Assembly: GCA_035532215.1 (NCBI GenBank)
Contig: DATKRK010000416.1
Span: 13,183 to 77,182 of the forward strand
Reading direction: 5' to 3'
DNA: 64,000 nt
Source of the DNA: Pirellulales bacterium
GTDB lineage: Bacteria > Planctomycetota > Planctomycetia > Pirellulales > JAICIG01
A model generated the notes under the pieces. That model was not told the DNA's origin and ran no database searches. It was given only the letters and a program-made list of their open reading frames with translations. This document shows positions 5,401-55,180 of the stretch, in pieces. Positions within the stretch are counted from its first letter, which is position 1; each line of letters begins with the position of its first letter. The position numbers and the translations under genes were made by a program.

Positions 5401-8400
5401 CAATCCGACCAGTACGATCTACGTCGACAAGACGCCGCCCAAGCCGGGAGATATCAGCGGACCGCTGGGCTCGCTTACGAATCCGTTCACGACGATTCAA
5501 GCCGCCTTGAATTCCGGCCTGCTGGTTGCCGGAACGAACTTGCGGATCGAAGGCAACGAAGGCGCCAGCTTCGTACTGCCGCTCTCGGCGAAGCCGTTTG
5601 CCGTGGGACAGCAGTTTACGGTGAGCGCGGGCACGGTCAGCGCCGTGTTCGAATTCACCAGCAGCGGCGCCGCCGCCAACGGCCAGTTGCTGCCCGACGG
5701 CAACTATGCCGTCGCCTTGCCCGCAACCTACACTCCGCTCGGCGCCGCCTTCGCCGTTCAAAACGCCATTCAAAACGTGTTCCCGAGCTCGTCGCCGCAG
5801 GGGGACGCCAGCGGCGACATCCAGGTCGCGCTATCGAGCGACTCCGCGAACGAGTACGTCAACCTGACCGGCAAGCTGCGAATTACGCTGGGCATCGATC
5901 CGCCGCCGGCGACCGCCTTGTCGACCCAGCCCCACGCGGCGGGCGGAACCGACCTGGTCGTGCCGCTCGGCGCGGCGCCGATCGTGGCCGGCCAGACTTT
6001 CCAAATCGTCGCCGGAACGGTCACTGCAAAGTTCGAATTCGCCAGCGGCGCCGGGATCTCTCCCGGTCAGCTTCTGACCGACGGCAATTACGCGGTCGTG
6101 CTGCCGGCGACTTATTCGGCGCAGAACGTCGCCGCCGCGCTGCAGGCGGCGATTGCGGCTTCGCCGTTGTCAGGGGCGGCGGCGGGCAATGTCGTGGTCT
6201 CGGTCACCAACGATTTAACCAACTACTACGCGACGCTGACCGGCAGTCTGTCGATTTCAGTGACCGTGCTCTCGACGCCCGCCACGCCGATGTCGTTCAA
6301 GTACAGCGACGTGGCGTATCAAATCGGCGCCAACAACGCCGCCAACCAATTCCAGCCGCTGGCCGACGGCGCTACGTTCGACGTGCCGCGGGGCGTGACG
6401 GTGATGATCGATCCCGGCGCCGAGTTCAAGATGAGCAAGTCGATCATCGACGTCGGCAGTTCGGCTCAAGGCATCGATCGCAGCCAAGGCTCGTTGCAAG
6501 TTCTGGGCATTCCCGGCAACCAGGTGATTTTCACCTCGTTCGCCGACGATACCGTCGGCGGCCAAACCGAATTTCCCGACACGGCGCCGACCCGCGGCGA
6601 TTGGGGCGGGTTGGCGTTCCGCAACGACTCGGGGTTGGAGCCGCTGGGCATTTTCGTGAATTACGTCGACGAAGCCAATCTTCGCTACGGCGGCGGCCAG
6701 GTCTCCGTCAACGGCACGCCGTCGGTGTTCAACGCCGTCGACATGGAATCCGCCCGGCCGACGGTCACCAACAACATCATCGTCGACAGCGCGCAGGCGC
6801 CTATTTCCGCGACGCCCAACAGCTTCGAAAAAACTCAGTTCCAGCAGAACGTGCGGCTCACGGCCGCGGCCGGCAGCGCCATCGTGGACGGGCAGACGTT
6901 CCAAATTCACGGCGCCACTTTCGAGTTCATCAACGTCAATAACCCGCAGAACTCGGCCGGCAACGGCAAGTACAAGAGCCTGCCCGGCGTGGTCCAAGTC
7001 TTGTATCACAGCGGCTTTTCCGGCCCGACCGATACCGACGTGCAGGTGGCGTTGGAAATCGCCGAAGCCATCAACGGCGCGCAACAGCTTTCGCACCCCG
7101 CCGTCCAGGCGGCCGTGACGGGCAATCAAGTGACGATCACCAACGTGACGTCGGTCGATTCGCCGGTGGCGCTCGACGTGCCCTTCTCCGGCAGCCAATC
7201 GGGCTTGAACGGCGAGACGTTCGCTATCAAGGGCACGGTTTTCGAATTCTTCAGCGGCGATGCGTTTCAAGTTCCCGCCAACGGCGGCACGGGCATCGCC
7301 GACGGCGCCACGTTCACGATCACCCAAGGCGCCAACGCCGTCACCTTCGAGTTCGCAGCCAACGGCCGCACGCTGACCGACGGCCACGTGGCGATCGATT
7401 ACAACAACAATCCGGGCGCGACCGTTCCGCTGGTCGACACGATGGACACGCTGGCCCGCGAGGTCGTGCAGGCGATCAACGCGCAGGCCGCCGCCGGCGC
7501 GTTCGGCGCCGGCTCGCCCATCTCGGCGGCCTACAGCGGCAAGGGCGTGATCAGCATCGGCAGCAACGCCAGCACCAGCTACAGCCTAGGCGGCAGCGGC
7601 TTGACGCTGCTGGCGGGCGCCAACCAGGCGCCGTTGACCCCGAATAACGTGCTGGTTCACTTCAATCCGGCCGACACGTCGTTGGCTTTAGCCCAAGAAA
7701 TGGCCGCGGCGATCAATGCGGCGCAGATCGACGGCGGCACGGGCCAGCTCGTCTATGCCGAAGCGGTGCAGTCGGGCGCCACGGCGCGCGTCGACCTGAT
7801 GTACAGCTCCGACGTCAATCTCTCGGCGCCCGGCTCCGCCCCGCTCACGATGAGCCTGCTGACGCCGCTGACGATCAACACGGTCCCCGGCAGCCAATTG
7901 TCGGAGGGCGACACGTTCACGGTCAACGGCAAGACGTTCGAATTCGACAGCGGCTACACGCTAACCGTGCCGCAGAACCTGGCCCTGGCGGCGCCGCAGA
8001 GTTTCAGCATCAGCGATGGAACGAATACCATCGACTTCGATTTCAACGGCCCCTCGCCCGCCCGACAGGACCACGTGAACATCCCCTATTCGCCGGGCGA
8101 AACGCGCGATCAATTGGCGCAAGACATCGTCACGGCGATCAATAATTCGGGCCTCAAGGGCATCTTTGCCACGTGGCTCGGCTCTTTGGGGGGCCAATAC
8201 ACAGGCCAAGTGAACATCGGCGGCGTCGCCGCCAGCACCCTGCCCGGCGCGCCGGCCGCTACGCAGGTGAACACGAACGTCGTCTACGACAATTCGGCTC
8301 TCACGCGGAGCGGCTCGCCCGGTTTCACGGGCTTTACATCCGGCGACGTGTTGACCGTGCCGGATCTGAGCGCGGCGACGGGTTTGCGCAGCTTTCTGAT

Positions 8401-11400: not shown

Positions 11401-14400
11401 GCTGTTGAGCGGCTTGATTCCGGGCGGCACGAACCTGGCTCAGCCGATGCAGAGCACCACGTTCCAGAGCAACGTGTATCCCGCGTCCAACGTGCACGAT
11501 TTCGGCTCGATCAATCCGCGCGATCCGGGCATGCGGGTCGTTCTGCCCGGCGGGCCGCTGCAGCAGGGTCAGTCGAATCCGACGTATTACGTGCGGGTTT
11601 ACAGCCGCGGCCCGAACTCGAATCCCTACGTCAATTCGCCGGCGCCCGGCCAATCGGCGCCTGCCGAGAGCAACGGGCTCACGAGCGGCGCCTACGACCT
11701 GCAAGTCCGTTTGCAAGAGACGACGCAGGTCGCCGGCTCGGTCGTGCGGTTTGCTTCGATCAACTACGCCAAAGACGGCATCACCGTGCTCGGCCAGCCG
11801 GATCACTCGCCGTTGGCCGGGCAATCCGTTTCGAGCGGCTCCAATAACGTGACGATTACGGTGCCGCCCTCGCCGTTCGGCTCGACCGACCCGACCTACT
11901 TCCCCGGTCAAGCCAACGGTCCGGCTGCCGCGCAGAACCTGGGCGACCTGCTCACGACCGACACCAGTTCGCTGAGCGTCGGCGGAAATCTGACCGATCC
12001 CGGCCAGGTCGATTGGTACTCGTTCACGCTGAACTACGACTTGATGCAGGCGATCCAGCACGTCAACGGCGCCGACAAGACGTTCTCTACGATTTTCGAC
12101 ATTGGCTATGCCGACGGGTTGACGCGGCCCGATACGACGCTTTCGGTGTTCAACCAATACGGTCAATTGATCCTCAGCGGCCGCGATTCGAACATTTCCG
12201 ACCAGCAGCCGCAGCCGGGAGCGGGCGCCGACACGTCGAACCTCAGCCACGGCTCGTTCGGCACGCTCGATTCGTACATCGGCTCGGCGCAGTTGCCGAC
12301 CGGCTACGCGAATGGAACCACGCCCGGCTCGCTCGCCGGGCAGAATCCCGTTGGGTTGAACAGCTACACCTACTACGTCGCGGTCAGTTCCAATGCGACC
12401 TTGCCGACGGCGATGGACGCGACGTTCAACGCCAACAGCGCCAATCCGCTGGTGCGTCTGGAACCGCTCGAAGGTTTCAAGCGAATTGTCGAAGATCACA
12501 TCGGCTTTACCGGCTACACCAGCGGCAACGCGCTGTTCAACAGCGGCAACCTCACCTCGGGCAACCAGTCTTCGGGCAACACGATGGCCCCCCAAGACGG
12601 CGCGCTGCTGCCGATTCAGACCGTGGCCGATTTGCAGCAGCACGTCGTGCCGTACACGCTCGACAACGTCGTCGGCTACGCGGTCACCGACAATCATCTT
12701 TACACGATCAATCCCGCCACCGGTCAGCAGGAAACGGACGTCTCAGCCTTGGCGACCGACCAGCCGCCCAACGGAGTCTGGAAAGACATCTCGATCCGCA
12801 ACGACGGCAAGATGTTCGGCTATCGCACCGCGTACGATACCACCGGCAACTCGGGTTATTTCTACCAAATCGATCCAGGCACCGGAGCGCAGACGCTGCT
12901 CGGCGGCGACGGCGCCGCGGGCAAATGGGGCTTGAGCAAGGAAGTCGACTCCATGGTCTGGACGGGAGACGGCTTCAACAACTCGTACAAATTATTTTTT
13001 TCGATCAGGGCGGCTAACGGAATTTCGGCGCTGGTGCGGGCCAATCCGGACACGGGCGACACGACCCAGACGCCGCCATACGGGTTGTACGGCTACATGG
13101 AGACGGGGCTGCAAAACGGCATCAAGATCGAATCGCTGGCTGCGCAGGACGCCAACAAAAACCCCCAGATCTTCGAAGGCCAATCGTTCCAGCTCACCGA
13201 TCTGGCCGGGCGCACGATTACCTTCGTGTTTCACAACACGGCCAACCCGCCGCTGCCGCCGCCGCCGGCCGGCGCCGCGTATATCGACTTCGCCAGCGGC
13301 GACAGCGCGGACACGGTTGGCATGGAAATCGACTCTGCGATCAATCAGGCTTTCTTTGCGTTAGGCGCCCCGGTCAATCCCCCGGCAAACTACAAGCCGT
13401 TGACGGCCAACTATTCGTTTGCCGGCACGGCCAAACCGATCCAGCCGGGAGAGGTCGACGTCAACAACGTGGCCTCGGAAGACTTTTCGAACGCCTCGCA
13501 ATTCAACGTCACTTCGACCGGCGTCGGCGGTTACATCACCGGCATGGCTTTGGATCCCACCACCGGCGAAATCTATTGCGTGAGTTCCAACGGCGGCGTC
13601 TACGTGATGGATGGCCCCAATCCGGGCAGCATGCGGTACTTGGGTGCTTCGCAAGTTTTCACCAAAGCCGGCTATTCGTTCACCGGTTTGAACGTCGGTC
13701 CCCAAGACTTGGATTGGAATGGCGACGGCACGCCGGGCGACCTGCGCCATGTGTTGATCGCCAGCGCCGACGTCGCCGGCGGCGGCAGCGTCTTGACGGC
13801 CATCTCGATGGACGATCTGGCGGCGGGCAATATCTTCAATTCGCAGCCTATCCAGGCCGGCGCGCCGGTGGCCATCTTCGACGTGCCGGGCGTCGACCAG
13901 AACGGCTTGAGCGGACCGACGGGCTCGTACACCGACAATACGCCGCTGGCCGAGACGGGCGCGACCGGGATCGCCCTGTCGCCGCTGGACTTCAATCTCT
14001 GGCACCCGACCTTCACGCGTTGGGCCGATCCGGGCCACGGCATCCCCAACACCTATTCCAACAGCCGCGTCGGCGGCTTCCCCACTTCGGTCACCAGCGG
14101 CGACGTCAACTTCAGCACGAACGGATCGGCGGGCGGCGAAGTGGCCGGCGGCGTAAGCTTCTACTTCGGCATGGACAACTACATGCCGGAGCCCGCGAAC
14201 TATTTCGGCTACAACGGCATCGACGCCCAGTACGGCGTGCTCGACACGAATACGCAGAAGAATCTGACCTATCAAACGAATTCGGCCGCAAGTCCGGTGA
14301 TCCGCCAGACGTACAATCTGCCGGGCGGCGCCGACGGCATCCTGGAAACGAACGGATTCAGCCTGGCGGGCTACTCGTCGGCCGACAAGCCGACGTTGTA

Positions 14401-46977: not shown

Positions 46978-47106
46978 CGCGGCGGCAGTTTGGTATGTTA
47001 GGCGTATCGTTCACCTCCAGTGCCCCTGCGAGGCGGGCGGTGCCGTGCCCGCGAACGCTGCGCCGTTGACTTCTCAGACGGTTCGACAGAGTGTATAGAG
47101 GGATTC

Positions 47107-47292
47107 GTGATCGTCCATTATGATGGCTTCATTATTCTGTTGATTGTTCTTATGGGGCTTGTTCCGATTTGCCGCGGTGGTAAGTGGAATTGGAAGGTCG
47201 TTCAGCGCGGCAAGGCCCTCAGTGCTGTGTTCTGGTTTGGGTGGTTCTCGGCGCTCCTCGTCAGCCTGCTGAGGTTATGTGGCCTGATCTAA
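47107..47292 (+). CDS. possible small hydrophobic protein
   Basis: A GTG-started ORF, VIVHYDGFIILLIVLMGLVPICRGG...AVFWFGWFSALLVSLLRLCGLI, with two hydrophobic stretches in an apparently lower-GC patch. It has no clear RBS and no recognisable family. Confidence 0.25.
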   Translation: MIVHYDGFIILLIVLMGLVPICRGGKWNWKVVQRGKALSAVFWFGWFSALLVSLLRLCGLI

Positions 47293-47351
47293 CACTACAG
47301 CGATAACGTGAAGCGTTTTATCGTGTCGTCGCAATAGCGGAGTCTCGTTCG

Positions 47352-47573
47352 ATGAGCCTGACCTTGGAACAGTTCGGCATCGACCGGCTCAGCCCCCAGC
47401 AGCGACTTGAGCTCATCAGCCTCCTCTGGGACAGCCTGCCCGCCGATGTTCCAATAACCGTTCCCGATTCGCAGTTGCGGGAGTTAGAGCGGCGAATCGC
47501 CGCCGCGGATGCAGACCCCGGCGCGGCCGAGCCATGGGAAGAGGTGCGTGCTCGCCTGTCGAAAAAGCCATGA
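47352..47573 (+). CDS. putative addiction-module antitoxin component (TIGR02574-type, normally paired with a ParE/RelE toxin)
   Basis: MSLTLEQFGIDRLSPQQRLELISLLWDSLP...DSQLRELERRIAAADADPGAAEPWEEVRARL matches the 'putative addiction module component' pattern (L.P.eR.eLi..LwdSL....l.......eL.rR...). The stop TGA 47571-47573 overlaps the next ATG. Confidence 0.7.
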   Translation: MSLTLEQFGIDRLSPQQRLELISLLWDSLPADVPITVPDSQLRELERRIAAADADPGAAEPWEEVRARLSKKP

Positions 47574-47650
47574 TCTCGCCCGTCGTCCTGCGTCCCGAAG
47601 CCGCTCAAGACGTGGAAGTGGCAGCAAACGGAGCGTTCTGGATCGAATGA
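47570..47650 (+). pseudogene. 26-codon remnant of a ParE/RelE-type toxin gene
   Basis: ATG 47570 makes an ATGA overlap with the antitoxin stop. It encodes MISPVVLRPEAAQDVEVAANGAFWIE then a stop, resembling the N-terminus of ParE-family toxins (..v.f.peAe.Dl.ea..w..). The stop TGA 47648-47650 overlaps the hicA ATG 47647. Confidence 0.5.
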
Positions 47651-47835
47651 AGGTTAGGGAACTCATTAAACTTATTGAGGAAGATGGTTGGACGCAGACG
47701 CGAATGAAGGGAAGTCATCGCCAGTTCAAGCACGCTTCCAAAGCGGGGACAGTCACCGTGTCGGGCAAGCCGAACGTTGACGTACCGCCAGGCACGCTGA
47801 ATAGCGTGCTGAAGCAAGCGGGACTTAAGGAGTAG
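47647..47835 (+). CDS. hicA: HicA-family mRNA interferase toxin
   Basis: MKVRELIKLIEEDGWTQTRMKGSHRQFKHASKAGTVTVSGKPNVDVPPGTLNSVLKQAGL is the canonical HicA (YcfA-like) pattern, including GSH. Confidence 0.85.
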   Translation: MKVRELIKLIEEDGWTQTRMKGSHRQFKHASKAGTVTVSGKPNVDVPPGTLNSVLKQAGLKE

Positions 47836-47842
47836 GTGCTAC

Positions 47843-48058
47843 ATGCAGTACATGGTGGTCATCGAACAAGGCCCGACGAGTTGGGGCGCTTACGTCCCCG
47901 ATCTTCCCGGATGCGTTGCAGCCGGGGAGAGCCGCGACGAGGTGTTGCAACTGATCCGGGAAGCCATCGAATTTCACCTCGAAGGCCTTAAAGACGAGGG
48001 CGAGCCGATTCCGGCGCCGCATTCCTCGGGGGAACTCGTTGAGGTCCATGTCGATTAA
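47843..48058 (+). CDS. hicB: HicB-family antitoxin (UPF0150 core only, no appended DNA-binding domain)
   Basis: YMVVIEQGPTSWGAYVPDLPGCVAAGESRDEVLQLIREAIEFHLEGLKDEGEPIP is the HicB N-terminal fold signature. It lies 7 nt downstream of hicA. Confidence 0.8.
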   Translation: MQYMVVIEQGPTSWGAYVPDLPGCVAAGESRDEVLQLIREAIEFHLEGLKDEGEPIPAPHSSGELVEVHVD

Positions 48059-48168
48059 CATTGCGCCTTTGCGTTGGCACGCGTTGGAATAACGCCATCC
48101 AAAGCAACGTATCAACGGTCATCGCTTTCTTTCGTCTGTTCCCCTGACGCCATCGCCAATCGCCTCTC

Positions 48169-49446: not shown

Positions 49447-49613
49447 TTGCGGTCCTCGCTCGAAGTGCAGGCGGTGAAGGCGCCCGTCGCTTCTGGTTCT
49501 GCTTGCACGGCGGCATACAATTGGCTTGTGGCCCCTCGCGTTCTTTGGCTGTTATGTCGACCGAATCCGATCTCCCCGCGCCGTTGCCCGAAGAACCACT
49601 CGGCGAACCCAAC

Positions 49614-49717
49614 GCCGGGCGAGGGCGCCCGGCCCTCCCTGATGACGCCGGGCGAGGGCGCCCGGACCTCCCTGAAGCGGAATCCGATGCCGGGCGAGGG
49701 CGCCCGGCCCTCCCTGA
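49614..49717. repeat. family A GC-rich palindromic repeat, three direct copies
   Basis: GCCGGGCGAGGGCGCCCGG(C/A)CCTCCCTGA occurs at 49614-49642, 49647-49675 and 49689-49717. It is the same core as 45535-45560 and lies in the serS-uvrC spacer. Confidence 0.85.
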
Positions 49718-49739
49718 CGCGCGCGACGGCGACGCTGAA

Positions 49740-51050
49740 ATGCAGTTCGGCTATCGCCGGGCGGCGGCCAAGGTGCGCGAGTTTCCGCAGACGCCGGGCG
49801 TGTATCTGATGAAGGACGGCCGCGGCCGCGTGATCTACGTGGGCAAGGCCAAGAACTTGCGGTCGCGCGCGGCCAGTTACTTCTTGAAGGCGGCGGCCGA
49901 CGACCGCCGCACGGCCGAACTGGTGCGCGAAATCTGCGACATCGACTACGTCGAAGCCGAAAGCGAAGTCGACGCACTGCTGGCCGAAGCCCGGCTAATC
50001 AAGGACATTCAGCCCAAGTTCAACCAGGACCTGAAAGACGACAAGACCTTTCCGTACCTGGAAATCTACACCCGCGAGGACTTTCCCCGCGTCGAATTCA
50101 CGCGCGAGCCGAGCGAGCGCGGCACGAAGCTCTACGGGCCGTTCGCCAGCGCCAGCGGCCTGCGCGGCGCGATCCAGGTGCTGCAAAAGATTTTCAAATT
50201 CCGCACGTGCAGCCTCGACATCGACGAGGGCGACGAAAAGTGGCGCTGGTTCCGGCCCTGCCTGCTGGCCAGCATCGACCAGTGTACGGCGCCTTGCAAT
50301 TTGCGCATCTCGAAAGAAGAGTATCGCCGCGACATCGCCCGGCTGCGGATGTTTTTGGACGGTAACAAGCAGAAGCTGCTCAAAGAGATGCGCGAGGAGA
50401 TGACCGCTCACGCGAAGGCTCTGCGCTTCGAGCAGGCCGCCCGGCTGCGCGATGAAATCCGCTTGCTCGAAACGCTCGATCAGCGCGGCGAACTCGACAC
50501 CCACGAGCAGCCCGAGGTGTTCTACATCGACCCGAAAAAGGGACTGGCCGGGTTGAAAAAGGTGCTCAAGCTGGCCGAAACGCCGCGGACGATCGAAGGG
50601 GTCGACATCGCTCACCTGGGCGGCGGAGAAACGGTGGCCAGCCTGGTGCAATTCATCGACGGCTTGCCGTTCAAGCCCGGCTACAAGCGTTACAAGATTC
50701 GCGGCGTGAGCGGCATCGACGACTTTGCCAGCATTCACGAGGTGGTAGCTCGCCGTTTCCAGCGTCTGGACGCCGAAGGCGAAGCGTTTCCCGACATCCT
50801 GCTGATCGACGGCGGCAAGGGACAGCTCAACGCCGGCATGGAGGCGTTCGCGGCGCTGGGCATCCAGCCGCCGACCGTCATTTCGCTGGCCAAGCGGGAA
50901 GAAGAAGTTTTCCTGCCCGGCGTCGACGAGCCGCTGCGTTTAAGCCGCCACTCCTACGCCCTGCGGCTGTTGCAGTACGTGCGCGACGAGGCCCATCGCT
51001 TCGCCCAGCACTACCACCACATTTTGCGGCGCAAGACGTTGGAAGGATGA
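49740..51050 (+). CDS. uvrC: excinuclease ABC subunit C (short form, no C-terminal (HhH)2 domain)
   Basis: Start chosen at ATG 49740: MQFGYRRAAAKVREFPQTPGVYLMKDGRGRVIYVGKAKNLRSRAASYF (GIY-YIG). It also has a Cys-rich segment FRPCLLASIDQCTAPC, a UVR domain (LRFEQAARLRDEIRLLE) and an endonuclease domain ending ...YVRDEAHRFAQHYHHILRRKTLEG. The upstream in-frame ATG 49554 would add a tail made of family A repeats. Confidence 0.85.
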   Translation: MQFGYRRAAAKVREFPQTPGVYLMKDGRGRVIYVGKAKNLRSRAASYFLKAAADDRRTAELVREICDIDYVEAESEVDALLAEARLIKDIQPKFNQDLKDDKTFPYLEIYTREDFPRVEFTREPSERGTKLYGPFASASGLRGAIQVLQKIFKFRTCSLDIDEGDEKWRWFRPCLLASIDQCTAPCNLRISKEEYRRDIARLRMFLDGNKQKLLKEMREEMTAHAKALRFEQAARLRDEIRLLETLDQRGELDTHEQPEVFYIDPKKGLAGLKKVLKLAETPRTIEGVDIAHLGGGETVASLVQFIDGLPFKPGYKRYKIRGVSGIDDFASIHEVVARRFQRLDAEGEAFPDILLIDGGKGQLNAGMEAFAALGIQPPTVISLAKREEEVFLPGVDEPLRLSRHSYALRLLQYVRDEAHRFAQHYHHILRRKTLEG

Positions 51051-51270
51051 CGGGGATTTTGGATTTTCGATTGCGTGAATAGGCGTCGTGCCAGGCATTA
51101 CTCCCAAATGCCCCAATTCAACGAGACGGAATCGAATTATGGTTCCTCGGCAGAATCTGTGGTTGGTTCCGGCCGCAGATCAAATGGAGGCGTGCGTTTT
51201 TTTAGGCATATCCGGGCAAATAAATGGGGTCGCAATGCGCGGACGAGATAATTCGTGATAGAATCTTCGT

Positions 51271-51394
51271 CGCCTGGTGAAACGGAGTCAGGCTCTGCTG
51301 GCGAGCAACCTGGCAAGGGATAACCAGGTCCGCACCGGGTAAATGACTCGCCTTGCCCTGACCCGCCGCGGCGGGTCAGGGCCTTTTGCGCTTT
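51271..51394 (+). ncRNA. candidate ~125-nt structured small RNA or cis-regulatory leader
   Basis: An extended -10 element TGaTAGAAT (51256-51264) is followed by predicted stems UCGCC/GGCGA and ACCUGG/CCAGGU (51309-51329), then an 11-bp terminator hairpin. The whole unit is bracketed by a perfect 19-bp inverted repeat, CCGGGCAAATAAATGGGGT at 51212-51230 and its complement at 51400-51418. No known RNA family was recognised. Confidence 0.3.
51356..51394 (+). terminator. Rho-independent terminator-like hairpin
   Basis: CCCTGACCCGC (51356-51366), loop CGCG, GCGGGTCAGGG (51371-51381), then CCTTTTGCGCTTT. The opposite strand has no T-run. Confidence 0.6.
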
Positions 51395-51506
51395 ACAGCA
51401 CCCCATTTATTTGCCCGGCCTTGCCTTGGAAAACGCAACCGCAGCCCCGCTAATCAGCGCCAAAATCACCACTAGATTCTGCGGAAGAGCCAGAAAGGAT
51501 TGAGCC

Positions 51507-52421
51507 ATGCAGTTCAACGAATGGGTAACGCTCTACGCCCATTACCGAGACTTGGCCTCAAAATCGGGCGCACGCCACAACTCGGTTTATCGAACGTTCG
51601 AGACCTTTTACGACACGCACATCAAGGATGCAGAGAGCAGGCGCAGTGAGATGGATGCGAGCCATCTCCACATGGAGCGAGCGTGGTATAGCGAACGACG
51701 ACCATATTACAACGTCTACCCGAAGATCATCCCGCACCTAACGGCCGTTCGTCTCGACTGCCCTGTCTCAGTGGTCGAGCCACCGGTGCCTTATCTATTG
51801 GTCCGGTTACCCGCCGCCGACAATCCTCTATCGTTTGCCCACGAAGGCCGCCCCTATAATCTTCGAGGAATTCTTTTTGGTGTTTTTGAGTTCCTCTACA
51901 CTGGAAGACATCGCTTTGATATGTGGCTCGACATCGGTGAGACGGGAGTTGATGACCGACCCGTTTACACGCTTCGCAGCTTCAACTTCGACCGAGAACG
52001 ATCCGTCGAGGAAGCGATCAATGAGGGGAAGACCGATCCCTCGATCAATTATGGCGTGCTGCTTCCCACCGATTTTCAGCTTCAAGCCATAAAACTGGTT
52101 TGTTGCCTCTGCCTGCTAAGAGGAGATCCCGATGTAATTGAGCCTGACGTTTTAGTCGACGATCAGGATAAATACGAGCAAACCGGGGACCAACGGTACG
52201 TCGAGAAAGCCCATCGGCGGGGCAAGGTAGGCTGGACCGTAGGCAAGCAGATCGAAAAAGCCCCTCACTGGCGACGGCCACATTTTGCGCTGTTCTGGAC
52301 GGGAAAGGGGCGAACCATTCCCAAGATCGGGCTGCGAAAGGGGGCAATCGTCAAGCGAGCCGTGGTCGGCGAGATTCCCACCGGCTACCTCGACGATAAG
52401 GAGAAGCCCGGCGCAAGCTAA
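51507..52421 (+). CDS. hypothetical 304-aa protein, no recognisable family
   Basis: GAAAGGA lies about 7 nt upstream of ATG 51507. Codon usage and GC look atypical for the window by eye. It has no signal peptide or TM segment. The basic C-terminal segment is APHWRRPHFALFWTGKGRTIPKIGLRKGAIVKR. It lies inside the TIR-bounded segment. Confidence 0.6.
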   Translation: MQFNEWVTLYAHYRDLASKSGARHNSVYRTFETFYDTHIKDAESRRSEMDASHLHMERAWYSERRPYYNVYPKIIPHLTAVRLDCPVSVVEPPVPYLLVRLPAADNPLSFAHEGRPYNLRGILFGVFEFLYTGRHRFDMWLDIGETGVDDRPVYTLRSFNFDRERSVEEAINEGKTDPSINYGVLLPTDFQLQAIKLVCCLCLLRGDPDVIEPDVLVDDQDKYEQTGDQRYVEKAHRRGKVGWTVGKQIEKAPHWRRPHFALFWTGKGRTIPKIGLRKGAIVKRAVVGEIPTGYLDDKEKPGAS

Positions 52422-52565
52422 TCATTTCTGGGGCTGGGAATAAGGCAATTTTGTTCGCCGGCCAGGAATTGCGCTTCATTCTTTTTCGTTTCGTTTAATC
52501 AGGGCATTTGGGAGCAAAGCCCTCACAAGCTGCGAAATCGAAAATCCAAAATAATCGCAAAAAAT

Positions 52566-53861
52566 CTACGCCGCCTTGCGAACGTAGTCGAACTGCGACG
52601 CGGCCTTGTTCCAGCGGCGCAAGGCCATCGCCGCCATGTGCCCGCCAAAGGCGACCGAGAGCTTGAGCGCGTGCTCGAATGGGCTGCGGCGGCCGACGAG
52701 CGGAATGCAATCGAGATCGCACTCGGGGTCGGGATCGGTCAGATTCACGGTCGGCGGGGCGAAGCCGTCGCGCAAGGCGAGCGCCGTGATCGCCAATTCG
52801 ACGCTGCCCGCGGCGTTCACCAGGTGGCCGAGCATCGACTTGGTCGAGCTCAGGCAAATTCGGTCGGCGGCGCTGCCCAAGGCGCGGCGAATGCCGCGCG
52901 TTTCGACCACGTCGTTCTGCTGCGTGCCCGTGCCGTGGGCGTTGATATAGCCCACGTCGTCCGGGCTCAGCCGGGCTTGTTTGAGCGTCGCCGAAATCAG
53001 ATAGGCGAGCGATTCGCTTTCGGCGTCGAGCCCGGTGAGGTGATAGGCTTGGGCTTGCATCTTGCCGCCGATCACTTCGGCGTAGATGTCGGCTTCGCGG
53101 CGCAAAGCGTGGCTCAGGCGTTCGACGACGAACATCGCTGCGCCTTCGCCCATCACGAAGCCGCTGCGGCGGACGTCGAACGGGCGGCAGGCCTGCTGCG
53201 GATCGTCGTGCGTGGCCAGCACGCGCATGGCTTGAAAGCCCGCGGCGAACAGCGGATGAAACGTCTCGGCGCTGCCGGCCAAGGCGATATCGCATTGGTC
53301 ATCGCGAATGGCGCGGACGGCCGACAGCACCTCGATCAACCCGCTGGCGCAGGCCGTCGAATGGCAAAGCCGGGGGCCTGTTAAGCCATAGCGATTGGCG
53401 ACCAGAGAACACGCGGTATTCGGCAGCCATTGATGCCACCAAGGCAGATCCTTGGCGTGCGGCGCCGGCCAGCGGCCCGGCTGCTCGTCGAACCAGCCGG
53501 TATCGCCCATGTGGCCGCTTACGGCGCAGCCGAATCGCTGCGGCTCGATTCGCGCCAGATCGACGTGCGCGTCCGCCATCGCTTCGGCGGCGGCCTGCTG
53601 GCACAGGGCAATCGTTTTGAGCTGGCCCGGATACTCCAGCGAAGTCCGAACCGGGGCGCCGATGGCCAGGCCCGCGGGAATCTCGGGCAGCCCGGCCAGA
53701 GAGCGAACGCCGCTTTGCCCTCGGCGCACGGCTTGCCAGACGGTTTCGCGATCGTCGCCAACGGCGGCAATCAGACCGATGCCCGTGATGACGATCGCGT
53801 CCCGCTCGGGGTTTAGCGTCGCAACCCCTCTGCTCATCTTGCTCGCCGCCTCAAGGTGCAC
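52566..53861 (-). CDS. beta-ketoacyl-ACP synthase, KAS-II (FabF)-like
   Basis: IVITGIGLIAAVG N-terminus, active-site Cys in HSTACASG, and His residues in NAHGTGTQQND and SMLGHLVNAAG (C-H-H triad). The start may instead be ATG 53837. It is not next to other fab genes. Confidence 0.8.
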   Translation of the reverse strand: MHLEAASKMSRGVATLNPERDAIVITGIGLIAAVGDDRETVWQAVRRGQSGVRSLAGLPEIPAGLAIGAPVRTSLEYPGQLKTIALCQQAAAEAMADAHVDLARIEPQRFGCAVSGHMGDTGWFDEQPGRWPAPHAKDLPWWHQWLPNTACSLVANRYGLTGPRLCHSTACASGLIEVLSAVRAIRDDQCDIALAGSAETFHPLFAAGFQAMRVLATHDDPQQACRPFDVRRSGFVMGEGAAMFVVERLSHALRREADIYAEVIGGKMQAQAYHLTGLDAESESLAYLISATLKQARLSPDDVGYINAHGTGTQQNDVVETRGIRRALGSAADRICLSSTKSMLGHLVNAAGSVELAITALALRDGFAPPTVNLTDPDPECDLDCIPLVGRRSPFEHALKLSVAFGGHMAAMALRRWNKAASQFDYVRKAA

Positions 53862-53932: not shown

Positions 53933-54070
53933 CTAGCCCGGATTATTCATCAGCCCCGAGAATGCTCGACAAAGCGCTTCATACTAACCCGAAGCGCTAG
54001 CGAGGTAAGGAGATTGCTCCACCTCGCTTGCGCTTCGGGTTGGTGTGGGCTGACGAATAATCCGGGCTAG
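53933..54070. repeat. 138-bp nested-palindrome (MITE/REP-like) element, family B, copy 1
   Basis: Terminal inverted repeats CTAGCCCGGATTATTCATCAGCC ... GGCTGACGAATAATCCGGGCTAG. The inner hairpin is AACCCGAAGCGC.AGCGAGGT ... ACCTCGCTTGCGCTTCGGGTT. Confidence 0.85.
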
Positions 54071-54123
54071 AGGAGTTTGCCGACCACTTTCGGCCACTTT
54101 CGGCCAGGGAGCAACTCGCGCAA

Positions 54124-54681
54124 TTATTCCGTGATTTCTCGAATAACCCGGCAGGGATTCCCGGCGGCGAACACGCCATCCGGGACGTCGCGCGTGACGA
54201 CGCTTCCGGCTCCGATCACGGATTTCGAGCCGATCCTTACGCCCGGGCAAATGATAGCACCGCCCCCGACCCACACATCCGATCCGATCTCGATCGGTTT
54301 GCCAAACTCCTGCCTTCGACGCAGTTCGGCATTCATCGGATGGGTGGCGGCGTAGATCTGCACCGCCGGGCCGAACATCGTGAAATTCCCGATCCTGACC
54401 GGGCACACGTCGAGCACGACGCAATTGAAATTGAAAAACACCCGCTCTCCGAGCCAGATGTTCTTCCCATAGTCGCAATAAAAGGGCGGCTGGAGCCAGA
54501 CGGACTCCCCGCCCTGCCCGAACAGTTGCTTCAGAATCGAGCGTCGAGCGTCGCCGTCCCGTTCACGGGTAAGATTCAAGTCTTGGCACAAATCTCTCGC
54601 ACGCTCGCGAGCTTGGACGAGCTCCGCGTCGAGCGGATCGTAAAGCTCTCCCGCCAACATCTTCTCTTGTTCCGTTGGCAT
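54124..54681 (-). CDS. maa: maltose/galactoside O-acetyltransferase (hexapeptide-repeat, Maa/LacA-like)
   Basis: MPTEQEKMLAGELYDPLDAELVQARERARDLCQDLN is the Mac N-terminal domain. The hexapeptide left-handed beta-helix follows: IGNFTMFGPAVQIYAATHP...IGSDVWVGGGAIICPGVRIGSKSVIGAGSVVTRDVP. The start is taken at the internal ATG 54681. Confidence 0.8.
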   Translation of the reverse strand: MPTEQEKMLAGELYDPLDAELVQARERARDLCQDLNLTRERDGDARRSILKQLFGQGGESVWLQPPFYCDYGKNIWLGERVFFNFNCVVLDVCPVRIGNFTMFGPAVQIYAATHPMNAELRRRQEFGKPIEIGSDVWVGGGAIICPGVRIGSKSVIGAGSVVTRDVPDGVFAAGNPCRVIREITE

Positions 54682-55180
54682 CGACGGCTCAAGACCCTCG
54701 GTAAAACAGATAACCCGCGGAATTGCCACCCCCAATTCCTAGACCTGACAAAGCACTAGTATGGTAATGAACCTCATCTCGGCTTCCCAGAGGCAAGTCG
54801 ATCGAGAATCGAGATTTACCGCGAGGCCAACTCCGGTTGCCGCGGGCGATTTTAGGGATTATATCAAGGCGGACGCACGGCGCTCCACGTCGCAGAAGCC
54901 GAAACGAAGGAGGTTCAAGGAAAACTTCGAGGACGTCGAATTGGGCCAGAACATCCTGGACCAGGGCGGTCGAGGAAATTGACCAGCCAATTCGAAACGT
55001 GATGCCGTTGCTCAACGCGTTTTCGGTCGCGCGTCGTGCATTTCCTCGAGCGTCTCGCCTCGGCGGCCAAGCCACTACGCCGGTATCGTAGGCACGGCTG
55101 CGCGCGACGGACCGATCAAGCGCGGGTCACACGAAGGCGCGGCCGAGGCGGCCGACCGTGAGAGTCAACTGCGGCAAACG

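Follow-up and report, generated by a model that had tools for sequence, protein, structure and literature searches.

The spacer between the convergent uvrC and ketoacyl synthase (KAS) genes of a Pirellulales bacterium (assembly GCA_035532215.1, contig DATKRK010000416.1) holds a 1,428-bp insertion that is absent from the same site in related genomes. We examined this locus within a window of 64,000 nucleotides (positions 13,183 to 77,182 of the contig, numbered here from the first letter of the stretch). According to our reconstruction, to which we assign a probability of about 0.75, a foreign cassette carrying a gene of the AcrVA2/FinQ family, with a miniature inverted-repeat transposable element (MITE) nested in it, entered an ancestral intergenic hairpin at its loop. 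A preliminary description of the same sequence had proposed an insertion bounded by imperfect terminal inverted repeats and carrying a structured RNA unit together with an orphan open reading frame (ORF).

We took as relatives the contigs that carry the closest UvrC proteins, gathered by a protein search with the UvrC of the window: L043 (96% identity), L044 (92%), and L053 (93%). In L043 and L044, uvrC converges on the same KAS gene across spacers of only 78 and 76 bp, respectively, and these empty sites, which the preliminary description had suggested looking for, bear out its proposal of an insertion. Both spacers form hairpins composed of GATTTTS heptamers (GGATTTTSGATTTT..., loop, ...AAAATCSAAAATCC) that fold with z scores of −3.5 to −3.9; L053 has an uninterrupted hairpin right after the uvrC stop, and its contig ends before the KAS gene. 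The outer arms in the window are homologous to the hairpin arms of the relatives, and when positions 51094 to 52521 are removed in silico, the remaining 87 nt fold as the ancestral hairpin (z = −4.6).

This comparison separates two inverted pairs that had been read as a single feature. The outer pair (51056-51075/52533-52552; 20 nt, 95% identity) includes a perfect 17-bp match (51056-51072/52536-52552). Since its arms match the intact hairpins of the relatives and the in silico deletion restores a hairpin, this apparent terminal repeat is a split hairpin; that is, the perfect 17-bp pair is host sequence. A perfect 13-bp pair (51101-51113/52502-52514) lies inside a second, 44-nt pair of inverted ends, hereafter I1. 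The I1 ends start where the likeness to the loop of the empty sites stops, i.e., at the exact borders of the insert; they thus open and close the inserted DNA and belong to the incoming segment, and they are absent from the hairpins of all three relatives. BLASTN joins the outer and inner pairs into one collinear inverted match of 82/75 nt with 73% identity. The imperfect terminal inverted repeats of ~55 to 60 bp previously described are therefore real as a collinear repeat but composite, with 17 to 20 bp of host hairpin on the outside and only the inner 44 nt inserted. The two perfect cores are found where they had been reported, and in 100 dinucleotide-preserving shuffles of the window, neither was ever matched twice; neither core occurs again in the 64 kb. 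At each junction (51066-51136 and 52483-52544), the ancestral arm can also pair locally with the heptamer-like inner part of the adjacent I1 end, marginally better than in shuffled sequences (z about −2), so that each junction resembles a small hairpin of its own. This local pairing may reflect chance, a target preference, or the trace of a donor site.

Composition sets the segment apart as well, as had been judged by eye. Its GC content is 0.544, versus 0.632 for the window, and no other stretch of that size is as low in GC (0.16th percentile); the segment also has the most deviant tetranucleotide usage at that size. Regional GC runs from 0.50 to 0.58, against 0.62 to 0.69 in the flanks, and GC at third codon positions is 0.62 in the ORF versus 0.82 in uvrC and the KAS gene. 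The segment is thus a lineage-specific, compositionally foreign insertion into a hairpin loop (Table 1).

Table 1. Coordinates of the insertion, its nested features, and the flanking genes in the window
Feature	Position	Strand	Evidence or remark
uvrC, left flanking gene	49554..51050	+	Stop codon 51048-51050; Pfam UvrC domains on an identical metagenome gene; orthologues 92-96% identical in L043, L044, and L053
Left arm of ancestral intergenic hairpin, GATTTTS heptamers	51054..51075		Same sequence directly after the uvrC stop in three relatives, pairing with the right arm over a short loop
Left remnant of ancestral hairpin loop	51076..51093		GGCGTCGTGCCA is similar to GGCGTTGACCAG, the loop of L043
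Inserted foreign segment, 1,428 bp	51094..52521		Absent from the empty sites of L043 and L044; lowest GC and most deviant tetranucleotides in the window
Left inverted end (I1-L)	51094..51137		44 nt, 80% complementary to 52478-52521; includes a mini-hairpin GGCATT/AATGCC at its terminus as well as the 13-bp core
Nested miniature transposable element with ISL3-type ends	51141..51491		Termini and GGGCAAATAAATG box align with a 311-nt element of L027
Perfect 14+14 GC-rich palindrome, then CTTTTGC, terminator-like, inside the MITE	51355..51382	+	Repeat search; putative function; not called by terminator scan
AcrVA2/FinQ-family gene, 304 aa	51507..52421	+	Precomputed Pfam PF26125; AlphaFold fold match to AcrVA2; HxRxxH at H254/R256/H259
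Right inverted end (I1-R)	52478..52521		44-nt partner of I1-L
Right remnant of ancestral hairpin loop	52522..52532		Spacer minus 51094-52521 refolds to the ancestral hairpin
Right arm of ancestral intergenic hairpin	52533..52554		Homologous to the arms of the relatives
KAS gene, right flank	52566..53861	−	Pfam ketoacyl-synt domains; orthologous 3′ end adjoins the hairpin in L043 and L044

Judging from a precomputed Pfam match, a predicted fold, and a sequence motif, the 304-aa product of the inserted gene is a distant member of the described AcrVA2/FinQ family (PF26125). AcrVA2 is an anti-CRISPR protein of a Moraxella bovoculi prophage, and FinQ is a fertility inhibitor of IncI-type plasmids. 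The ORF proved to be anything but an orphan: a word-indexed search gathered 171 homologues of about 290 aa at an E value of ≤1e-3, the named ones belonging to Planctomycetota, and a profile of 34 homologues retrieved 1,743 clusters among 1.84 billion representatives; a tblastn search against plasmids and phages gave no match. An identical metagenome protein (P0001) has a precomputed match to PF26125 (AcrVA2-like; E ≤ 1e-5), as do about half of the listed homologues. When the AlphaFold2 model of the ORF (mean pLDDT, the predicted confidence score, of 87.4) was compared with the PDB by Foldseek, ranks 1 to 3 were AcrVA2 chains (7ci2_A, 7ci1_B, and 7ci1_A; E values of 2.9e-6 to 1.8e-5, probability of 1.00) in full-length alignments of 308 to 326 columns; the next PDB match had an E value of 0.38. 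A viral structure library yielded fold matches to uncharacterized jumbo-phage and siphovirus proteins. Finally, the columns of H254-W-R256-R-P-H259 are invariant or at least 90% conserved among the 34 homologues, and the H254/R256/H259 pattern equals H286/R288/H291 of AcrVA2 in both spacing and relative position, the equivalence being one of pattern and not of a printed residue alignment. These three AcrVA2 residues are required for activity according to Marino et al., who also report that distant orthologues, the plasmid fertility inhibitor FinQ among them, retain the HxR motif and that the family occurs mostly on mobile elements in hosts without Cas12a (bioRxiv 10.1101/2022.11.29.518452).

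The most conserved segment of the family, PHYRRPHxALxWTGKGRTxPK (ORF residues 253 to 273), overlaps the HxRxxH residues needed for AcrVA2 activity and resembles the C-terminal DNA-binding signature of H-NS (YRxP...TW[ST]G[QR]GRxP). A profile search of the PDB matched the H-NS-like domain 2l92 at an E value of 0.72, hhalign against Escherichia coli H-NS gave a probability of 34% over 14 columns, and 2 of 14 members match Pfam Histone_HNS at an E value of ~0.04. The model of the C-terminal fragment was too poor for a fold search (pLDDT of 61.6). An H-NS-like nucleic acid hook in this segment is thus a weak lead; if true, it would account for how AcrVA2-type proteins reach their target mRNA.

The unit between the left end and the gene had been described as a promoter, a structured RNA, and a terminator bracketed by inverted repeats. 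The inverted repeat (51137-51230/51400-51495) and the palindrome that it surrounds are real, yet the unit is, by the similarity of its ends and the length of the duplications made by its relatives, an ISL3-type MITE. When the noncoding parts of the window were compared by BLASTN with the loci that we had fetched, a 33-nt motif was matched three times in L027, a locus of 8.8 kb from another planctomycete, a metagenome-assembled genome (MAG) of Planctomycetaceae. A 311-nt element with inverted termini of 21 to 24 nt is present there in three copies that are 98 to 100% identical (753-1063; 1546-1856, reverse; and 6277-6587, all within 6 kb). Each copy has its own perfect 8-bp duplication of an AT-rich target (CATTAGTA, ATTTTTGA, and GTTATGGA), indicating that this related MITE family transposes. 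The unit of the window, present once in 64 kb, aligns with the L027 element at its two ends and in an internal GGGCAAATAAATG box. Its left end reads GGTTCCTCGGCAGAATCTGTGG, and its right end, reverse-complemented (GGCTCTTCCGCAGAATCT... / GGCTCTTCCGCAGAATCTAGTGG / GGCTCTTCCGCAGAATCTAGTGGTGATT), matches published ISL3 ends. These start with GGCTCTTCG and are accompanied by 8-bp duplications in ISArsp7 (PMC6305408), and a Microcystis ISL3 element and its MITE likewise have GGCTCTTCG ends and 8-nt direct repeats (PMC11448079). The alignment of termini and box with the L027 element, together with the match to published ends, underlies our assignment of the unit to the ISL3-type MITEs. We identified no ISL3 transposase with these ends and found no ORF with homologues inside the MITE.

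The L027 copies surround a Shedu gene, an AcrVA2-like gene located directly after it (the Shedu gene encoding SduA_C), a RibD_C gene, and a methyltransferase gene. A composite transposon made of two inverted MITE copies around the AcrVA2-like gene was considered for that locus; the separate target duplication of each copy led us to reject it.

The course of events that we favor can be outlined as follows. The spacer would first have held only an AT-rich hairpin of ~77 bp. About 1.4 kb of low-GC foreign DNA would have entered its loop and pushed the arms 1.46 kb apart, leaving what looks like a perfect outer terminal repeat. The cassette would have been a compact single gene between 44-nt imperfect inverted ends, without a recombinase and without target duplication. 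After or before its arrival, the ISL3-type MITE would have inserted between the left end and the gene, supplying the long inner inverted repeat, the structured core, and the terminator-like palindrome. Without the MITE, the cassette would have measured ~1.07 kb (a 44-nt end, ~20 nt, the ORF, 56 nt, and a 44-nt end) with scant room for a promoter, and transcription of the gene may then have come from uvrC, which has the same orientation, by running on through the disrupted hairpin. Since the MITE places a terminator-like palindrome upstream of the gene, the present promoter would have to lie within 51385-51500. By analogy with AcrVA2, the variable N-terminal part of the protein would recognize a specific target protein by its nascent N-terminal peptide, the conserved C-terminal part with HxRxxH would trigger loss of the mRNA of that target, and the protein would serve in the conflict between mobile elements and host defense. 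A possibly defense-like role, as had been suggested for the locus, agrees with the ties of this family to such conflicts.

Several results weigh against this reconstruction. The insert lacks a target site duplication: its flanks read ...GTGCCA and CTCACA..., with no direct repeat of 2 to 9 bp. The previous description had seen neither a duplication nor a recombinase motif, and we likewise found no recombinase or transposase encoded in the insert. No second copy of I1 was found in the window or at 25 other family loci. Scans of metagenomes and viruses for I1, by exact matching, gave only chance 17- to 20-mers: the 20-nt I1 core had one chance match, in an unrelated GC-rich metagenome contig, and viral scans for the MITE end and the I1 core returned only chance 17- to 18-mers in AT-rich phages. 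The metagenome negative is weak, since that scan did not return even the contigs of the source organism. Without a duplication or a second copy, mobilization as an element with terminal inverted repeats is unproven. Integron attC sites, XerCD pdif modules, and IS200/IS605 ends were also considered as models for the I1 ends; an inverted asymmetric core or missing defining sites argue against them. The copy of the MITE in the window likewise has no clean 8-bp duplication (CGAATTAT versus AGAAAGGA, 3 of 8 positions matching). Its long arms, its different core, and this imperfect border suggest that it is old or rearranged; either the copy has decayed or its borders differ from those that we drew. 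A transcript may nevertheless arise from the MITE core.

For the protein, scans of the ORF against local copies of Pfam-A, NCBIfam, PADLOC, and PHROGs gave no match, and hidden Markov model (HMM) searches of the PDB with the single sequence, the full profile, and the C-terminal profile did not reach AcrVA2. The link was therefore tested by structure, and membership rests on the precomputed Pfam match, the fold, and the motif. A local Pfam-A scan of six homologues also returned nothing, even for those with a precomputed PF26125 match; the PF26125 model is probably absent from the local Pfam-A copy. The fold match to AcrVA2 has a template modeling (TM) score of only 0.42 to 0.47, as expected for a three-domain protein with mobile domains.

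How the cassette moved could be explained in two ways: it could be an element mobilized in trans, like the mobile insertion cassettes discussed below, or it could have come by recombination from another palindromic site. Inverted ends at the exact borders speak for trans-mobilization, and the lack of a duplication, a second copy, or a cognate insertion sequence (IS) speaks against it. The second route amounts to a possible, if doubtful, alternative in which the I1 ends are not transposon ends: homologous or illegitimate recombination from a palindromic or hairpin donor would have delivered the cassette, and serial insertions into loops would have produced the nested repeats. The missing duplication and the single occurrence of I1 are in line with this scenario, as are the palindromes nested throughout the locus (hairpin arms around I1, I1 around the MITE arms, and these around the terminator palindrome) and the pairing of the inner part of I1 with the adjacent ancestral arm. 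Yet that pairing is only marginally above shuffled sequences, I1 is absent from the hairpins of the three relatives, the heptamer hairpin forms no repeat family in the window, and no donor site is known.

Two further readings assign the novelty to the RNA or to the protein. That the structured unit (51240-51390) is a noncoding RNA gene forming a two-component accessory or defense module with the 304-aa protein, as had been proposed, is very unlikely. The unit lies 120 to 270 bp upstream of the ORF on the same strand, has by eye an extended −10-like sequence (TGATAGAAT) and a strong GC palindrome with a short run of T residues after it, and region 51190-51440 folds far below its shuffles (z = −9.3). 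However, most of this score comes from the long inverted arms of a transposable element; the ends and the internal box of that element are found again in L027, in copies with target duplications. Moreover, a promoter scan of the unit found no promoter; Rfam 15 covariance models gave no match at an E value of ≤1 on either strand of 50500-53000; and ARAGORN found no tRNA or transfer-messenger RNA. Among 27 loci of other genomes, BLASTN with the noncoding parts of the window found nothing except the MITE end motif in L027, and in the closest homologue of the ORF (P0002) the gene is preceded by only ~110 bp, too short for such a unit. No need for an RNA partner is known in the AcrVA2 family, whose tested activity is posttranscriptional downregulation of a target and not recombination (bioRxiv 10.1101/2022.11.29.518452). 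The latter point also bears on the idea that the protein is a new mobilization enzyme moving the cassette by its inverted ends, which we consider extremely improbable. It is the sole gene inside those ends, nucleotide similarity among family loci ends at the gene borders, so that the gene moves as a unit, and Tn5 transposase chains appear in the Foldseek list. These Tn5 matches are not significant, though (E values of 0.67 to 3.4, probability of 0.04, TM score of 0.13), AcrVA2 is the only significant fold, and no inverted repeats surround the gene at any of the 25 other family loci.

The window thus shows a single case and not a recurrent mobile unit of inverted repeats, RNA, and protein, and nothing points to an undescribed two-component system. 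We return, then, to the foreign cassette with its nested MITE in a hairpin loop: the locus is made of known parts, namely an AcrVA2/FinQ gene, a known type of MITE, and an ordinary hairpin, and only the 44-nt ends are unexplained. It seems improbable that the 1,428-bp segment is the first example seen of a type of recombinase-less single-gene cassette that enters hairpin loops without target duplication and spreads AcrVA2/FinQ-like genes, its MITE core possibly giving a promoter or a small RNA.

Elsewhere, the family is borne on mobile elements and variable islands, as shown by empty sites, by islands rich in defense genes or insertion sequences, and by relatives encoded on nine IMG/VR contigs. 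Several MAGs have two or three copies. The gene for P0002 lies near genes for a type ISP restriction enzyme, an integrase, an SbcCD-like pair, and BilD; that for P0004 lies inside a Qat island (QatABCD: KAP NTPase/QatB/QueC/TatD); that for P0006 is one of three paralogues amid DISARM-like helicase/MZB/PLD, SLFN, TIR, NUDIX, and Nmad3 genes; and P0034 is encoded near IS66 and DDE_5 transposases. In L037/L038 (8001-12546; the same region as L007), three AcrVA2-like paralogues share a strand and have small ORFs of unknown kind between them; they are preceded by DISARM-like (helicase, MZB, and PLD), SLFN_AlbA_2, and TIR_2 genes and followed by NUDIX and Nmad3 genes.

Other features of the neighborhood lie outside the insertion. 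The 5′ part of uvrC (49612-49675) has a GC-rich 33-bp tandem repeat (1.9 copies, 96% matches) encoding a repeated AGRGRP(A/D)LP, and this N-terminal extension of UvrC falls outside the alignments of most relatives, which match 87 to 93% of the query. About 3 kb upstream, between an M20 peptidase gene and serS, is a second lineage-specific insertion (46978-48168; GC of 0.52 to 0.58) with a 61-aa ORF, an Unstab_antitox-family gene, and the HicA and HicB genes; L043 has only a 97-bp spacer there, and no inverted repeats were found flanking this insertion of toxin-antitoxin genes. Beyond the KAS gene, L043 and L044 carry type VI secretion genes (IcmF-related and DotU), and the window has instead a Mac/hexapeptide acetyltransferase gene (53984-54735); hence, the neighborhood is rearranged on the KAS side too.

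By itself, the locus does not represent a system of a new kind. It shows that a convincing terminal inverted repeat can arise by insertion into a preexisting hairpin, a trap for transposon annotation. It also places the AcrVA2/FinQ family in Planctomycetota, in multiple copies beside DISARM-like, Qat, Shedu, TIR, and restriction genes. To our knowledge, no bacterial protein other than AcrVA2 has so far been reported to recognize a nascent peptide and destroy the specific mRNA that encodes it; this placement offers candidate natural targets for such a mechanism.

Each part of the locus has a described counterpart. Like the terminator-like hairpins found between convergent genes, the ancestral hairpin is a stable, AT-rich stem directly after both stops, in a position kept in three relatives; unlike them, its stem consists of GATTTTS heptamers and not of a GC-rich stem with a T run. 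It is probably terminator-like and common to both genes. A genome-wide family of the repetitive extragenic palindromic type was considered for the heptamer hairpin and rejected for this window, where it forms no repeat family. The insert as a whole recalls mobile insertion cassettes, in which IS-type inverted repeats enclose passenger genes but no transposase (see, for example, PMC4337579 and PMC5444012). It shares with them inverted ends at exact borders, one passenger gene, the lack of a transposase, and an empty site in relatives but differs in having no target site duplication, no cognate IS with the same ends, and no second copy; trans-mobilization is thus unproven. The inner unit shares with ISL3-derived MITEs, such as that of Microcystis, its termini (GGCTCTTCC... 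and GGTTCCTCGG...), a length of ~350 bp, the lack of an ORF, and relatives, in L027, with perfect 8-bp duplications, whereas its inverted arms are far longer (~95 nt), its core is unrelated, and no duplication is recognizable.

The gene product, finally, resembles AcrVA2 and FinQ in its length of ~300 aa, its full-length match to the AcrVA2 fold, its C-terminal HxRxxH, and its variable N terminus, and members of the family likewise reside on mobile or foreign DNA, most often where the genome has no known cognate target. In contrast, the ORF is only ~16% identical to AcrVA2, with no sequence-level match to PDB chains, and it stands alone in the chromosome of a planctomycete between housekeeping genes and not in a prophage or plasmid. 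In Planctomycetota, moreover, the family is multicopy and embedded in defense islands.

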